This document shows positions 3,238-30,095 of a DNA stretch of 64,000 nucleotides, in pieces. Origin of the DNA: Betaproteobacteria bacterium (GTDB lineage: Bacteria > Pseudomonadota > Gammaproteobacteria > Burkholderiales > SG8-41); the NCBI GenBank assembly GCA_032128415.1, contig JAQBGW010000096.1, positions 2,592 to 66,591 on the forward strand, in the 5' to 3' direction. Every line of letters starts with the position of its first letter. The stretch's first letter is position 1. The translations under genes were made by a program, and so were the position numbers. The notes beneath the pieces were generated by a model. That model saw only the letters and a program-made list of their open reading frames with translations. It did no database searches and was not told the DNA's origin.

Positions 3238-3252
3238 AAGCCACTGTTTCTT

Positions 3253-3300
3253 CGCGCCGATTTGAGATCAGCTTGCGGGCGCGTAATAAATCCGGCTAAA
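3253..3300 (+). promoter_or_regulatory. structured metX leader: hairpin plus tail able to form a pseudoknot (candidate SAM-responsive element, class unconfirmed)
   Basis: CGCGCC (3253-3258) pairs perfectly with GGCGCG (3278-3283). The loop contains GAUUU and AGCUUG. The 3' tail AAAUCCGGCU can pair with the loop GAUUU or, alternatively, with the terminator 5' arm. Confidence 0.3.
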
Positions 3301-3319
3301 GAGATGTATGAATTCTCGT

Positions 3320-3351
3320 AACCCCGGAGCGCAGGCTTTCGGGGTTTTTTT
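3320..3351 (+). terminator. intrinsic terminator/attenuator abutting the metX start
   Basis: AACCCCGGAGC-GCAG-GCUUUCGGGGUU forms about 11 bp with one bulge and a GCAG loop. A run of 7 T follows, and an ATG comes immediately after it. Confidence 0.7.
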
Positions 3352-3364
3352 ATGGCTATTACTT

Positions 3365-4522
3365 ATGGCTATTACTGATACCACACCGCAAGCGCGATCC
3401 GTCGGCGCCATTACGCCACAGACCGCGCGCTTCAACGCTCCGTTGCCGCTGCGCAGCGGTGCGGTTCTGCGCGACTACGAACTGGTGTTTGAAACCTACG
3501 GCACGCTTAACGCCGAACGCTCCAACGCTGTGCTGGTCTGCCACGCGCTCAACGCCTCGCATCATGTCGCCGGCACCCATGCCGGTGACCCCGACAACGT
3601 GGGTTGGTGGGACAACATGATAGGCCCCGGCAAACCACTGGACACGAATCGTTACTTCGTCATCGGTGTGAACAATATCGGCGGATGCCACGGCTCTACC
3701 GGGCCACTCAGCGTTAATCCTGATACCGGCAAAATCTGGGGCGGCGACTTTCCAGTGGTCACCGTCGAAGACTGGGTGGATGCGCAGGCGCGACTGGCCG
3801 ATCACCTCGGCATCACCCAGTTTGCCGCCGTCATGGGCGGCAGCCTCGGCGCCATGCAGGCCTTGTGCTGGGCCATCCGTTATCCGCAACGACTGCGCCA
3901 CAGCATCGTTATTGCCTGCGCTCCGAATTTGTCGGCGCAAAACATCGCCTTCAACGAGGTCGCGCGGCAGGCCATAGCCGCCGATCCGGACTTTCACGGC
4001 GGCAACTATCTCGAACAAGGTACTGCACCCAAGCGCGGGCTGCGGGTGGCGCGCATGATCGGCCACATTACCTATTTGTCTGACGACGAGATGGCGAGCA
4101 AATTTGGACGCCAGTTGAAAAACGGCAAACTCAATTACACCTTCGACAGCGAGTTCCAGATCGAATCGTATCTGCGCCATCAGGGCAACAAGTTTGCAGA
4201 TTACTTCGACGCCAACACTTACCTGCGTATCACCAAGGCGCTCGACTACTTCGATCCGGCATTCGAGAACGGCGGCAATTTGACGCTGGCGCTGGCGCCG
4301 GTGCGGGCCGGCGTGCTGGTCGTCTCGTTCACCACTGACTGGCGCTTCTCGTCCGAGCGTTCGCGCGAAATCGTGCATGCGCTGCTCGACAATCGGGCGC
4401 GCGTTTCCTATGCGGAAATTGATGCGCCGCACGGACATGACGCGTTCCTGCTCGAAGATGCGCGCTACCACCGATTGGTTGCCGCGTATTTCGACCGCAT
4501 TCATGCGGAGGTGGCGCCGTGA
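3365..4522 (+). CDS. metX: homoserine O-acyltransferase MetX (acetyl- or succinyl-transferase cannot be told by eye)
   Basis: 385 aa from the ATG at 3365 ([19 protein letters not shown]...). It is an alpha/beta hydrolase with the nucleophile elbow [10 protein letters not shown]. metW follows. The track start at 3308 would put the terminator inside the CDS. Confidence 0.9.
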
Positions 4523-5115
4523 CCATCCGCAATGATGCACAACGTCCTGATTTCGCCGCCATCGCGCAGTGGGTGCAACCGGGTGCACATGTGCTTGATC
4601 TGGGCTGCGGTGATGGCACGCTGCTGAAATATCTGCGGCAGGCGCGCAAAGTTACCGGCTATGGCGTTGAGATCGACGATCGTAATGTACTGGCCTGCGT
4701 AAACAACGGGATTGATGTCATCCAGAGTGACCTGGAGCGCGGTCTCTCGGAATTCGCCGACGGCTCATTCGATTATGTGATTCTGTCGCAGACCCTGCAG
4801 GCCATGCGCAACACCGAGCGCATCGTTCGCGAAATGCTCCGCGTCGGGCGCGCGGGTATCGTCACTTTCCCGAACTTCGGTTACTGGAAAAACCGCTTTC
4901 AGGTATTGCGCGGACAAATGCCGGTATCAGACTCGCTGCCCTTCGAGTGGTTCGACACGCCGAACGTACATCTGTGCACCGTCGCCGACTTTGAGCAATT
5001 CTGCGCGCAGCGCGGCATCCGCATCGTCGAGCGCACCGTCCTCACTGCCGGCCGTCCGGTGCTGGCATGGCCGAACCTGCTGGGCGAACTCGCCGTCTAT
5101 CACTTCGGCGTCTGA
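4519..5115 (+). CDS. metW: methionine biosynthesis protein MetW
   Basis: 198 aa with the SAM-MTase-like motif [12 protein letters not shown]. Its GTG start overlaps the metX stop (GTGA). metX-metW is the canonical pair. Confidence 0.9.
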
Positions 5116-6368: not shown

Positions 6369-7141
6369 GCGGGCATCCCGGCGTAATCGATGATCAGCGG
6401 TGCATGGTCGGAAAAACGTGCGTCTTTGTAAATGGCAGCCTTCTTCGCGGTAGCCGCCACGCCTGGCGTCGCAATCTGGTAATCAATCCTCCAACCGACA
6501 TTCTTCGCCCAGGCTTGGCCCCGATTTGACCACCACGTGTACTGTTCGGGACGTGGATCAATGCTGCGGAACACATCAACCCACCCCAATTCGTCGAACA
6601 CCCGCGTCAGCCATTCCCGCTCTTCCGGCAGGAAACCGGAGTTCTTGCGGTTGCCGCGCCAGTTTTCCAGATCAATCTCCTGATGTGCAATGTTCCAGTC
6701 TCCGCACAACACCACTTCGCGGCCGCCGGCTATCAGGCGCTTCAGGTGGGGATAGAATTTTTCCATAAAATGAATCTTGGCCTGCTGGCGATGCTCACCG
6801 CTGGAACCCGAAGGCAAGTAAACCGAAATCACCGATAATTTGCCGAAATCCGCGCGCAGATAACGCCCCTCGGCGTCGATTTCTGCAACGCCCAGGCCGG
6901 CGGCGACCCGATCGGGCGCAACTTTCGAGTAAATGCCCACGCCGCTATAGCCCTTCTTTTCGGCGTAATGAAAATGGCCGCAGTATCCGCCGGGAGCCAG
7001 CAATTCGTCAGTCATGTCCGCGGCCTGCGCCTTGATTTCCTGGACGCAAATCACGTCGGCATGCTGGCGCGGCAACCAGTCCAGGAACCCCTTGCGTGCA
7101 GCAGAGCGGATGCCGTTGAGATTCAGGGTTATAATTTTCAT
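6365..7141 (-). CDS. xthA: exodeoxyribonuclease III (AP endonuclease)
   Basis: 258 aa with MKIITLNLNGIRSA, VCVQEIK, LCGDWNIAH and a C-terminal SDHAPL motif of the ExoIII/APE1 family. Confidence 0.93.
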   Translation of the reverse strand: MKIITLNLNGIRSAARKGFLDWLPRQHADVICVQEIKAQAADMTDELLAPGGYCGHFHYAEKKGYSGVGIYSKVAPDRVAAGLGVAEIDAEGRYLRADFGKLSVISVYLPSGSSGEHRQQAKIHFMEKFYPHLKRLIAGGREVVLCGDWNIAHQEIDLENWRGNRKNSGFLPEEREWLTRVFDELGWVDVFRSIDPRPEQYTWWSNRGQAWAKNVGWRIDYQIATPGVAATAKKAAIYKDARFSDHAPLIIDYAGMPA

Positions 7142-26391: not shown

Positions 26392-27558
26392 ATGAGTAAT
26401 TACCTCTTCACCTCGGAATCCGTTTCCGAAGGGCATCCCGACAAAATCGCCGACCAGATTTCGGACGCCGTACTCGATGCCATTCTCACCGAAGACAAAA
26501 ATGGCCGCGTCGCTGCTGAAACGCTGACCCACACCGGCCTGGTCGTACTTGCCGGTCAGGTCACCACCAGTGCGCGCGTGGATTACGCACAGGTCGCGCG
26601 CAGGATCATCAAACAGATCGGCTACGTCGACTCCGACATCGGTTTCGATTACAAAAGCTGCGGCGTACTGGTGTGTTACGACCAGCAATCACCTGACATC
26701 GCGCAGGGTGTGGACGAAGGCAAGGGGCTCGATCTCGATCAGGGCGCCGGCGACCAGGGCCTGATGTTCGGATTTGCCTGCGATGAAACGCCGCAACTGA
26801 TGCCGATGCCGATCTACTACGCGCATCGCCTGATGGAACGCCATGCCGAGCTGCGCCGCGACGGCCGTCTGCCGTGGGCGCGCCCCGACGCCAAATCGCA
26901 GGTTTCCGTGCGTTATGTTGACGGCAAGCCGCATCACATCGACACCGTGGTGATCTCGACCCAGCATCGCGAAGAAGTTACCCACAAGCAAATCGAAGAA
27001 GCCATCATTGAGCAGGTAGTGAAGCCGGTGCTGCCGAAAAACCTGATTACCAAGGACACCAAATACCTGATCAACCCGACCGGCCGTTTCGTCATCGGCG
27101 GCCCGCAGGGCGACACCGGACTCACCGGCCGCAAGATCATTGTCGATACCTATGGCGGCTATTCGCGTCACGGCGGCGGCGCATTCTCCGGCAAGGATCC
27201 GTCAAAAGTCGATCGTTCGGCTGCTTACGCCGCACGCCATGTGGCGAAGAATATCGTCGCCGCTGGCCTCGCCACCAAATGCGAAATCCAGGTTGCCTAC
27301 GCCATCGGCGTAGCGCGCCCGGTCAGCGTACTGGTCGACACCTTCGGCACCGGAAAAATTTCGGACGAAAAAATTGCCGCGCTGGTTGATAAACATTTTG
27401 ATCTGCGGCCAAAAGGCATCATCCTGGCGCTTGATCTGCTGCGGCCGATCTACACTAAAACCGCCGCGCATGGCCACTTCGGTCGCGACGAGCCGGAGTT
27501 CACCTGGGAAAATACTGACAAGGCCGCTGCACTCAAAGCGGATGCGGGCATAAAATAA
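26392..27558 (+). CDS. metK: S-adenosylmethionine synthetase
   Basis: 388 aa with [24 protein letters not shown] and GGGAFSGKD. Confidence 0.97.
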
Positions 27559-27574
27559 CGGTATAATCCGCCCC

Positions 27575-27652
27575 GCTGAGGAGCGTTGCGACCGGTGGGG
27601 TTTTGAGTAGTTACCCATCACCGGCCAGGCTCAGCAAGATTCAACGGCGCTC
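27575..27652 (+). promoter_or_regulatory. SAH riboswitch aptamer, copy 1
   Basis: CUGAGGAGCGUUGCGACC...CCGGCCAGGCUCAGCAAGAUUCAACGGCGCUC matches the conserved core of the ahcY-leader (SAH) riboswitch as I remember it. A TATAAT hexamer sits at 27562-27567, just upstream. Confidence 0.8.
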
Positions 27653-27683
27653 GCATCGGCAACGGTGCGGGCGCTTTTCTTTT
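27647..27683 (+). terminator. intrinsic terminator forming the expression platform of SAH aptamer 1
   Basis: GCGCUCGCA (27647-27655) pairs with UGCGGGCGC (27666-27674) with one G-U pair, followed by UUUUCUUUU. The 5' arm overlaps the aptamer 3' strand. Confidence 0.7.
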
Positions 27684-27716
27684 GTAATTGCGGTTTGTAA
27701 TTTTGATATGCGTGCT

Positions 27717-27798
27717 CCCGAGAGGCGCTGCGACCGGGCGGGGTTTTACCACCCCTTTCACCGGCCAGGCTCGGACAGCATTGCTGATAACGGCGCCC
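27717..27798 (+). promoter_or_regulatory. SAH riboswitch aptamer, copy 2
   Basis: CCGAGAGGCGCUGCGACC...CCGGCCAGGCUCGGACAGCAUUGCUGAUAACGGCGCCC has the same core as copy 1, with compensatory changes in two helices. It ends 10 nt before the ahcY SD AGGAG (27808-27812). Confidence 0.8.
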
Positions 27799-27820
27799 CA
27801 ATTTTTCAGGAGTAGCAGAT

Positions 27821-29224
27821 ATGAACGCAAAAGCCGCCGACTACAAAGTCGCCGATATCAAGCTGGCCGATTTCGGCCGCAAGGAAATTGCCATTGCCGA
27901 GACCGAAATGCCCGGCCTGATCGCATTGCGCGAGGAATTCAAAGGCAAAAAACCGCTGAAGGGCGCGCGCATTGCCGGCTCGCTGCACATGACCATCCAG
28001 ACCGCCGTGCTGATTGAGACACTGGCTGAACTCGGCGCCGACATCCGCTGGGCGTCGTGCAACATTTTCTCGACGCAGGATCACGCTGCGGCGGCCATTG
28101 CCGCGCGCGGCATTCCCGTGTTTGCCTACAAGGGCGAAACGCTGGAGGACTACTGGGACTACACCCACCGCATTTTCGAGTGGAATGACGGCGGCACGCC
28201 AAACATGATTCTCGACGACGGCGGCGACGCCACGCTGCTGATCACGCTGGGGGCACAGCACGAGCGCAACAAGACGCAGCCGCCTCAAGGCACCAACGAG
28301 GAAGAAGTGGTGTTGTTCGCCGCGATGCGCAAGACGCTGAAGGAGAGGCCCGGCTTCTACTCGAAAATCGAGGCGAACATCAAAGGCGTCACCGAAGAGA
28401 CCACCACTGGCGTACACCGCCTGTACCAGATGGAAAAAGAAGGGCGCCTGCCGTTCCCCGCGATCAACGTCAACGATTCGGTTACCAAGTCCAAGTTCGA
28501 CAATCTCTACGGTTGCCGCGAGTCACTGGTCGACGCCATCAAGCGTGCCACCGACGTGATGATTGCCGGCAAGGTTGCGTTGGTATGTGGCTACGGCGAC
28601 GTCGGCAAAGGCAGCGCGGAGGCGTTGCGCGCATTGTCGGCGCAAGTGTGGGTTACCGAGATCGACCCGATCTGCGCGCTACAAGCGGCGATGGAAGGCT
28701 TCCGCGTGGTAACCATGGATTACGCTGCCGACAAAGCCGACATCTTCGTGACCTGCACCGGCAACCTCGGCGTGATCACGCACGAGCACATGAAGCGCAT
28801 GAAGCACAACGCCATTGTCTGCAACATCGGGCACTTTGATTCAGAGATTGAAATCGCTGCGCTCAAGCAATACAAGTGGGACAACATCAAGCCACAAGTT
28901 GACCACGTGATTTTCCCCGACGGCAAGCGCCTGATCATCCTCGCCGAAGGCCGTCTGGTGAACCTCGGTTGCGGCACCGGTCATCCGTCGTTCGTGATGT
29001 CAAATTCCTTCACCAACCAGACGCTGGCGCAACTCGAGCTCTACACGCAGGGCGAAAAATACAAAAACAAGGTCTATGTGCTACCCAAACATCTCGATGA
29101 AAAAGTCGCGCGCCTGCACCTGAAAAAACTCGGCGTTGAACTGACGACGCTCAACGAGAAACAGTGCGACTATCTACAATTGAATGTCGACGGCCCGTTC
29201 AAGCCGGAGCATTATCGCTACTGA
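27821..29224 (+). CDS. ahcY: adenosylhomocysteinase
   Basis: 467 aa with [16 protein letters not shown], an NAD-binding GYGDVGKG motif and a C-terminal HYRY. Confidence 0.97.
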
Positions 29225-29249
29225 GCCACCGCATACGGAGGGCAACTCC

Positions 29250-30095
29250 ATGCAATCACAGAAAAAATTTGCCAGAACATTCAGCTTCGAGTACTTCCCG
29301 CCGAACACGCCGGAAGGGGTGGAGAGGCTGCGTGCCACCACGCAGCAACTGGCGCAGCTTAAACCGAAGTTCTTCTCGGTGACCTTTGGCGCCGGCGGCT
29401 CGACGCGTGAACGCACGCTGGACACCGTGCTCGACATCCGTGCGCAAGGCCATGCCGCCGCGCCGCACATTTCGTGCGTCGCCTCCACCCGCGACAACAT
29501 CCGTGTGATGCTGCAGCGCTACAAGGACAATGGCATTACCCATCTGGTAGCGTTGCGCGGCGACCTGCCTTCCGGTCTCGCCGCTGCCGGCGAATTTCGC
29601 TACGCCAACGAGTTGGTGACATTCATCCGCGAGGAATTCGGCGATCAGTTTCAGATCGAGGTGGCGGGATATCCGGAGTACCACCCGCAGGCGCGCAGCG
29701 CTCAGGACGATCTGCTCAACTTCAAACGCAAGGTGCAGGCCGGCGCCAGCTCGGCGATCACCCAGTATTTCTATAACGCTGACTGCTACTTTCATTTTAT
29801 CGATGAATGCGAAGCCATGGGACTCAACCTGCCCATCGTGCCCGGCATCATGCCCATCGGCCGTTTTTCGCAACTGGCGCGATTTTCCGATGCCTGCGGC
29901 GCAGAAATTCCGCGCTGGATACGCCGCAAGCTGGAGGGCTATGGTGACGATACGGCTTCAATCCGCGCCTTCGGTCTCGATGTGGTGACCCGGCTCTGCG
30001 ACGATCTGCTGTCAGCCGGCGCGCCCGGCCTGCATTTTTACACCATGAATCAGGCGGGACTGACCAGCACCATCTGGCAAAGGCTCGACCTGTAA
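29250..30095 (+). CDS. metF: 5,10-methylenetetrahydrofolate reductase
   Basis: 281 aa from the ATG at 29250, with a GGAG SD 9 nt upstream. It has FSFEYFPP and HFYTMN motifs. The track ORF is over-extended into ahcY. Confidence 0.93.
   Translation: MQSQKKFARTFSFEYFPPNTPEGVERLRATTQQLAQLKPKFFSVTFGAGGSTRERTLDTVLDIRAQGHAAAPHISCVASTRDNIRVMLQRYKDNGITHLVALRGDLPSGLAAAGEFRYANELVTFIREEFGDQFQIEVAGYPEYHPQARSAQDDLLNFKRKVQAGASSAITQYFYNADCYFHFIDECEAMGLNLPIVPGIMPIGRFSQLARFSDACGAEIPRWIRRKLEGYGDDTASIRAFGLDVVTRLCDDLLSAGAPGLHFYTMNQAGLTSTIWQRLDL

Follow-up and report, generated by a model that had tools for sequence, protein, structure and literature searches.

The stretch of DNA analyzed here, referred to below as the window, comprises 64,000 nt of the Betaproteobacteria bacterium assembly GCA_032128415.1 (contig JAQBGW010000096.1, positions 2,592 to 66,591, forward strand); all coordinates count from the window start. 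Our subject is the spacer of 262 nt, read directly from the sequence as 27559-27820, that separates metK (methionine adenosyltransferase) from ahcY, which is followed by metF. Gene identities were taken from NCBIfam matches, and the start of metF was mapped from the gene calls on an identical contig (L201). A sequence-only reading of this DNA had proposed that the spacer holds two S-adenosylhomocysteine (SAH) riboswitch aptamers in tandem and had predicted two independent matches to the Rfam model RF01057. The entire window was scanned against 4227 Rfam families at gathering thresholds, and the prediction was borne out far beyond chance: exactly two SAH matches were returned, both full length (model positions 1-78), both on the forward strand in the metK-ahcY spacer, and both above the gathering score of 37 bits. 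The positions given in that reading for the spacer, the two cores, the Shine-Dalgarno (SD) sequence AGGAG and the ATG, as well as for a TATAAT lying 7 nt upstream of copy 1, all agree with a direct reading of the DNA. The features of the locus are collected in Table 1.

Table 1. Features of the metK-ahcY-metF locus, followed by those of a second methionine locus, in window coordinates. Identities are from the alignment of 15 tandem leaders, scored against the window base.
Feature	Position	Strand	Evidence and details	Identity
metK (methionine adenosyltransferase)	26392-27558	+	TIGR01034, 594.9 bits; upstream neighbor; stop codon 27556-27558	
-10 box TATAAT, perfect	27562-27567	+	7 nt upstream of G27575, the P1 start of aptamer 1	0.94 (mean)
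SAH riboswitch aptamer 1	27572-27659	+	RF01057, 59.0 bits, E 2.6e-8, full length; core 27575-27652	0.95-1.0 (core segments)
Aptamer 1, P1	27575-27579 with 27631-27635		GCUGA/UCAGC	
Aptamer 1, pseudoknot P2	27581-27586 with 27647-27652		GAGCGU/GCGCUC; 6 pairs	
Aptamer 1, P4	27592-27597 with 27619-27624		CCGGUG/CACCGG	
Intrinsic terminator of riboswitch 1	27646-27684	+	Stem 27646-27675, GCAA loop, T tract UUUUCUUUU	
Variable inter-riboswitch spacer	27685-27709	+		0.29
SAH riboswitch aptamer 2	27710-27805, including P1 extension; RF01057 match 27714-27805	+	40.3 bits, E 5.4e-4, full length; core 27717-27798	0.85-0.99 (core segments)
Aptamer 2, P1 extension	27710-27716 with 27777-27784		GCGUGCU/AGCAuUGC	
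Aptamer 2, core P1	27718-27721 with 27771-27774		CCGA/UCGG	
Aptamer 2, P2	27723-27728 with 27793-27798		AGGCGC/GCGCCC; 5 pairs and the mismatch A27723·C27798, then flanking G27722-C27799	
Aptamer 2, P4	27734-27737 with 27761-27764		Plus GGGG/CCCC; internal loop present	
P4 distal parts				0.34
Tail-to-SD segment				0.41
ahcY ribosome-binding site	27808-27823	+	Sequence; SD AGGAG 27808-27812, start codon ATG 27821-27823	
ahcY	27821-29224	+	TIGR00936, 608.8 bits	
metF	29250-30095	+	TIGR00676, 332.9 bits; called start 29250	
Regulated operon ahcY + metF	27821-30095	+	NCBIfam matches and L201 gene calls	
SAM_alpha (SAM-II) match	3244-3320	+	RF00521, 38.7 bits (threshold 36)	
Intrinsic terminator 3' of SAM_alpha	Stem 3320-3346; element to 3351		T run after stem	
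metX open reading frame	3308-5115		NF047916, 656 bits	
metW			TIGR02081, 273 bits	

A survey of ahcY leaders for tandem copies, the check named in the sequence-only reading, was made on 80 species-representative loci fetched by AhcY from the genome collection, of which the 20 closest were scanned with Rfam and all 80 by motif. The closest AhcY relatives, 90-94% identical in amino-acid sequence, are all metagenome-assembled Burkholderiales or 'Betaproteobacteria'. Two SAH matches were found upstream of ahcY in 8 of the 20 closest loci (L001, L002, L003, L004, L007, L014, L015, and L018) and a single match in the other 12, while the motif scan of all 80 gave no doublets beyond these eight. Metagenome contigs were searched with the pattern CCAGGCTC-N65-95-GCGYTGC-N12-42-CCAGGCTC, which matched at least 120 stretches, a count that says nothing on abundance. 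Most of these matches were due to chance, and one locus (L140) had a single SAH riboswitch; at least eight contigs carried further real doublets, each with two Rfam matches (L089, L101, L109, L132, L137, L172, L185, and L190; L158 is a duplicate of L137). After removal of duplicates, 15 distinct tandem leaders were available, the window included, with L089 as an additional, atypical case.

When the 15 leaders were aligned, the core segments of both aptamers turned out to be well conserved, while the spacer, P4 loops, and linkers together ranged in identity between 0.29 and 0.5. At the level of sequence, such conserved cores amid drifting surroundings are the signature of purifying selection on both aptamers, and their retention in 15 distinct leaders supports the earlier contention that both copies are foldable, rather than one of them decaying. 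Two other assemblies, GCA_032127935.1 and GCA_032128055.1, contain the leader of the window with a single-nucleotide polymorphism in the spacer as the sole difference (T/C at 27704 between the window and GCA_032127935.1, over 291 nt compared), and because of this recurrence the leader sequence, including the unusual A27723 discussed below, is not a sequencing artifact.

Judged by every sequence and structure criterion applied, each copy belongs to the SAH riboswitch family, and the gene context is that of SAH recycling, with ahcY and metF immediately downstream. Pair statistics were computed on 73 distinct SAH aptamers, comprising both copies of the tandem leaders and single riboswitches. With the pseudoknot included, 87.4% of the cells were paired, compared with 32-43% when the partners were slid, and doubly changed cells numbered 248 versus 107 in shuffles. 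Changes on both sides were seen in five of the seven P1 pairs and in all six P4 pairs; the 15 copy 2 elements alone gave them in three P1 and three P4 pairs. The pseudoknot helix P2, in which the internal strand GGAGCGY pairs with the 3' tail GGCGCYC, was paired in 99.5% of cells, and its covarying position was A-U in 50 aptamers, G-C in 22, and unpaired in 1. The two types are sorted between the copies in all 15 leaders, copy 1 being of the A-U type (GAGCGU/GCGCUC) and copy 2 of the G-C type (GGGCGC/GCGCCC). The compensatory differences between the copies described in the sequence-only reading are thus real, in P1 (CUGA/UCAG versus CCGA/UCGG) as well as in P2 (GAGCGU/GCGCUC versus GGCGC/GCGCC); what had been called a distal helix there is the pseudoknot P2, which truly differs between the copies by a compensated change.

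The P1 extension of copy 2 was also recovered by RNAalifold, and the U-A pair found in the window in place of C-G is a compensatory change. The program backs only the inner four pairs of the extension and predicts, as an alternative, a small hairpin of the linker with the tail CGGCG. A possible P3 hairpin in the linker (CAGC-AUU-GCUG, 27776-27786) excludes the P1 extension, and both look maintained.

Copy 1 runs directly into an intrinsic terminator, the sole forward-strand site found in the spacer by the terminator scan. Its stem has 13 pairs, 9 of them G-C, with a hairpin energy of -22.9 kcal/mol, and is followed by TTTCTTTTGT. The hexamer GCGCUC serves both as the 3' strand of P2 and as the start of the 5' arm of the terminator, so that P2 and the terminator are mutually exclusive; as read from the sequence, this is the arrangement expected of a classic SAH-ON transcriptional switch. 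An equivalent hairpin (11-13 bp, -20 to -26 kcal/mol) with a T run stands directly 3' of copy 1 in 15 of 15 leaders, and the reuse of the aptamer's 3' strand by the terminator, pointed out earlier for the window, is found in every one of them.

The wider set of loci held some further leader forms. In L089 the second SAH match (6493-6605, reverse strand, 43 bits, 113 nt) lacks a tail of the canonical AACGGCGCCC type ahead of the start codon, and GGAGGCAACATG follows the aptamer without a break; this copy 2 may have degenerated, or its pseudoknot strand may be placed differently. Seven loci whose AhcY is 87-92% identical (L005, L006, L008-L011, and L023) have only one SAH riboswitch, of another design, just upstream of ahcY; there the SD region GGAGCGCGUG resembles GGAGCGC, a strand of the aptamer, and is able to pair with the tail GCGCUCACG, a clear translational platform. 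Three types of leader therefore stand beside closely related AhcY proteins: single translational, single with a terminator (L013 and L017), and tandem. The single riboswitches of L013 and L017 resemble a lone copy 1, those of L012 and L016 a lone copy 2. The contig from GCA_032128055.1 (L202, JAQBHD010000031.1) starts within the leader, its first position falling at the 3' arm of the terminator of riboswitch 1; the repeated aptamer sequences may have caused the assembly to break there. Breaks of this kind could leave tandem riboswitches under-represented in surveys based on metagenome-assembled genomes (MAGs).

Copy 2 differs from copy 1 in what follows it. In the window, the terminator scan found no terminator 3' of aptamer 2, which ends 9 nt before the SD sequence and 22 nt before the ATG; in 13 of the 15 leaders, 19-24 nt separate its end from the ATG. 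The lack of a terminator together with this near-constant distance to the start codon points to translation, and copy 2 most likely gates the translation of ahcY. In the minimum-energy fold of the window, AUAUGC-G-UGCUCC (the 5' flank plus the 5' strand of P1) pairs with GGAGUA-GCAGAU (the SD sequence plus spacer). The energy needed to open the ribosome-binding site fell from 8.2 to 2.2 kcal/mol when the nucleotides of aptamer 2 were withheld, a weak measure in view of the positive controls reported below.

SAH is a toxic by-product that inhibits S-adenosylmethionine (SAM)-dependent methyltransferases, and natural ON switches, of which its riboswitch is one, are few. The metK-ahcY spacer holds a genuine and conserved pair of SAH riboswitches, which most likely work as two ON gates in series, and we consider it probable that the ahcY-metF leader consists of two complete SAH-activated riboswitches placed one after the other on one transcript. 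The TATAAT is probably the promoter of the leader, its distance to copy 1 being kept at 7-8 nt even where the upstream DNA is unrelated. Transcription would start about 7 nt after it, and read-through from metK could also enter the leader. In the absence of SAH, GCGCUC would form the 5' arm of the 13-bp terminator of riboswitch 1; with SAH bound, it would be held in P2 with GAGCGU, and RNA polymerase would read on. In riboswitch 2 of the window, the 5' strand of P1, GUGCUCC, could pair with the SD region GGAGUAGC as long as no ligand is present, while SAH would stabilize the folding of P1, P2, and P4, with the ribosome-binding site freed. The same ligand would thus open both gates, each copy binding SAH, and the output would be the product of two occupancies, which would give a lower basal expression and a steeper response. 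By our own arithmetic, two switches of equal affinity would need an approximately 40-fold change in ligand to go from 10 to 90% output, compared with 81-fold for one switch.

Several observations weigh against this interpretation or parts of it. The sigma-70 scan called no full promoter at the TATAAT, the -35 element being weak at best. The opening-energy test failed to separate obvious translational single SAH riboswitches, used as positive controls, and is therefore weak evidence; the effect, 6 kcal/mol in the window, was little or none in deeper-branching leaders. No conserved anti-SD sequence was found, and in the consensus given by RNAalifold for the nine closest leaders the ribosome-binding site is unpaired, only P1 with its extension and the small linker/tail hairpin being supported. 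Duplexes between the 5' flank of copy 2 and the ribosome-binding site were no better than 500 shuffles (p of about 0.1 for the window; mean z of -0.46), and those of the flank with the linker were likewise not significant against 500 shuffles. Complementarities noticed by eye, such as CAUGUG/CACAUG in L004 and CAUGCA/UGCAUG in L007, are not claimed, since the shuffles were not beaten. Of the earlier suggestion that copy 2 is a translational or second transcriptional checkpoint, the part that stands is that no terminator follows it and that it abuts the ribosome-binding site; the translational role itself is a putative, if plausible, one. The window copy 2 is, moreover, the weakest SAH match encountered, relatives' copy 2 scoring 49-56 bits. 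Its A27723 is unique, a G paired to C being present there in 72 of the 73 aptamers, and costs it about 10-15 bits relative to the copy 2 of relatives; its core P1 has only 4 bp.

These last features could mean that copy 2 of this genome is a weakened or dying duplicate and that riboswitch 1 alone regulates. Besides its low score, so near the threshold, copy 2 shows two uncompensated G-to-A changes with respect to that of a close relative, L172 (55.8 bits): A27723, which gives the A·C in P2, and A27775, which breaks the fifth P1 pair. The remaining substitutions relative to L172, however, are compensated (C-G to U-A in the P1 extension and CGGC/GCCG to CAGC/GCUG in the linker hairpin), G-C pairs enclose the A·C mismatch on both sides, one of them the extra G27722-C27799 pair that occurs in only 4 of the 73 aptamers, all core nucleotides other than A27723 are intact, and the same sequence is present in three assemblies. 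From its sequence, the window copy 2 may bind less tightly, but we think that it is not dead, and a regulation left to riboswitch 1 alone appears unlikely. A division of the locus into two units, with copy 1 and its terminator forming a regulated 3' end of metK and copy 2 acting as the sole ahcY riboswitch behind a promoter in the spacer, would agree with the finding that the terminator scan gave no forward-strand terminator before 27646, that is, between the metK stop codon and the leader, and with the AT-rich nature of the 31-nt spacer of the window, which contains TTGTAA-N16-TGATAT. Against it, the promoter scan called no promoter-like site in the window spacer, and the stretch between the T run and copy 2, poorly conserved as it is (identity 0.29), varies from 5 to 44 nt in relatives and shrinks to 5-10 nt in L015, L109, L014, L018, and L101. 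Such spacers are too short for a promoter, so the two copies share a transcript, and the idea of another promoter within the spacer was dropped. Most tandem leaders, furthermore, have an upstream neighbor other than metK, which adjoins the leader in the window, L002, L101, L137, and L172, and the TATAAT before copy 1 is kept whatever the upstream gene; in L004 a reverse-strand open reading frame (ORF) stands between metK and the leader, which must therefore have its own promoter. The two-unit arrangement is accordingly very improbable. The description of the tandem as gating ahcY-metF directly after metK holds in the window, but the adjacency of metK is incidental, most tandem leaders lying elsewhere. 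Since metK has no terminator of its own here, the terminator of riboswitch 1 would have to end the metK transcripts as well, and metK read-through into ahcY would be permitted by SAH in this genome.

Two further explanations accept both copies as functional parts of one leader. If one copy bound SAH and the other a second ligand, say SAM or some further adenosyl compound, the leader would be a two-input logic gate, and the systematic P2 difference between the copies in 15 of 15 leaders and the extra linker hairpin of copy 2 might be taken as signs of this. The G-C variant of P2, however, is an ordinary compensated pair and is also found in several species whose ahcY has one riboswitch alone (L012, L016, L055, L063, L069, L072, and L076), and the unpaired conserved core (UGCRAC, CCAGGCUC, AACGG) is identical in both copies; a second ligand is very improbable. 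The presence of two homologous aptamers within one leader also recalls the glycine riboswitch, in which cooperative aptamers in mutual contact share one expression platform. Here a complete terminator with its T tract separates the copies in every leader, so that there is no single platform, and both the distance between the aptamers and the conservation of the intervening sequence (variable and absent, respectively) speak against such contacts; we regard a glycine-type arrangement as extremely unlikely.

The preferred reading thus remains that of two SAH-ON switches in series. As a tentative extension, the two aptamers could be deliberately differentiated partners, with P2 'address codes', two SAH thresholds, and a coupling to metK. 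The A-U/U·G versus G-C/C-G pairs of P2 might act as address codes that limit mispairing of the repeated strands during co-transcriptional folding. Unequal stabilities, stemming for instance from the long interrupted P1 of copy 2 or from its A·C mismatch, may set two SAH thresholds, a transcriptional gate and then a later translational gate responding at distinct SAH levels. Were this so, the first gate would double in this genome as an SAH-dependent metK terminator, coupling SAM synthesis with SAH removal.

The SAH motif of Weinberg et al. 2007 (PMC1950547; RF01057) is known as a single element before ahcY, metF, or metH in beta- and gammaproteobacteria, and published reconstructions of SAH regulons give one element per operon. 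Each copy found here resembles that element in being a full-length model match with P1, P4, the pseudoknot, and the conserved core, located before ahcY-metF, and copy 1 shares its ON logic, with a pseudoknot strand common to the terminator; the difference is that here each leader has two copies, with expression platforms that probably differ. Sherlock et al. 2022 (PMC9481103), in the most complete survey of tandem riboswitches, searched RefSeq 80 and environmental sequence, and SAH stands in their Table 3 with the classes for which no tandem was found. No description of tandem SAH riboswitches was found in the searchable literature, and the text of a 2025 survey of contiguous riboswitches contains no SAH doublets, which agrees with the earlier impression that the pair is undescribed. 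The genome-derived tandem carriers found here are all MAGs, and this is plausibly why SAH tandems are missing from the survey.

The two copies lie in a shared 5' untranslated region (UTR), with a gap of 54 nt between the Rfam matches (below 300 nt) and no ORF between the aptamers; the start of riboswitch 2 is 31 nt after the T tract. Just one forward-strand ORF call spans that gap (27688-28017, TTG start); since it continues across aptamer 2 and enters ahcY in another reading frame, it was discounted. The arrangement matches the definition of same-ligand tandems used by Sherlock et al. 2022, and among these most closely the 'bi-mechanism' type, with a terminator on the first element and the ribosome-binding site probably controlled by the second. 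That logic was described there for SAM-II/SAM-V and SAM-II doublets, which likewise respond to one ligand and have no intervening ORF. They are, however, SAM OFF switches, while both copies here are predicted SAH ON switches; in the SAH leader both aptamers are of one structural class, and an anti-SD sequence of the second switch is not evident. Pseudo-cooperative tandems (thiamine pyrophosphate, SAM-I, flavin mononucleotide, cyclic di-GMP-II, and others; PMC9481103) are similar in that two complete riboswitches for one ligand stand in series, from which a sharper dose-response is expected, but the classic examples carry a terminator after each aptamer, whereas here only the first is followed by one. 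Tandem glycine aptamers also place two homologous aptamers for one ligand in one 5' UTR; they differ in being adjacent, docking, and served by one platform, while a terminator and an unconserved spacer lie between the SAH copies. The tandem is thus an extension of known principles, a new architecture within a known riboswitch class, and is not mechanistically unprecedented. A conserved SAH doublet, with a terminator in its first unit and the second unit close to the ribosome-binding site, would fill a gap in the survey and give the 'bi-mechanism' category an ON/ON pair from a single class; as a natural part it would be compact, leak little, and respond more sharply. The finding also indicates that catalogs drawn from isolate genomes under-sample regulatory architectures.

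A 9-bp direct repeat, TTTGTAATT, noted earlier between the two copies, is present at both positions (27681-27689 and 27694-27702), the first of which overlaps the T tract; the spacer that carries it is unconserved. The repeat extends to about 13 nt (TTTGTAATTGCGG / TTTGTAATTTTGA, window 27681-27706). One relative, L002, has three related repeat units (2842-2885), while other relatives have none. The repeat is probably a product of replication slippage and not a functional site.

Elsewhere in the window, a SAM_alpha match is followed directly by an intrinsic terminator and lies upstream of metX and metW (Table 1). The listed start of the metX ORF overlaps the SAM_alpha aptamer and is probably too far upstream. 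Methionine synthesis in the same genome thus seems to be controlled by a transcriptional SAM-OFF switch, alongside the SAH-ON tandem.

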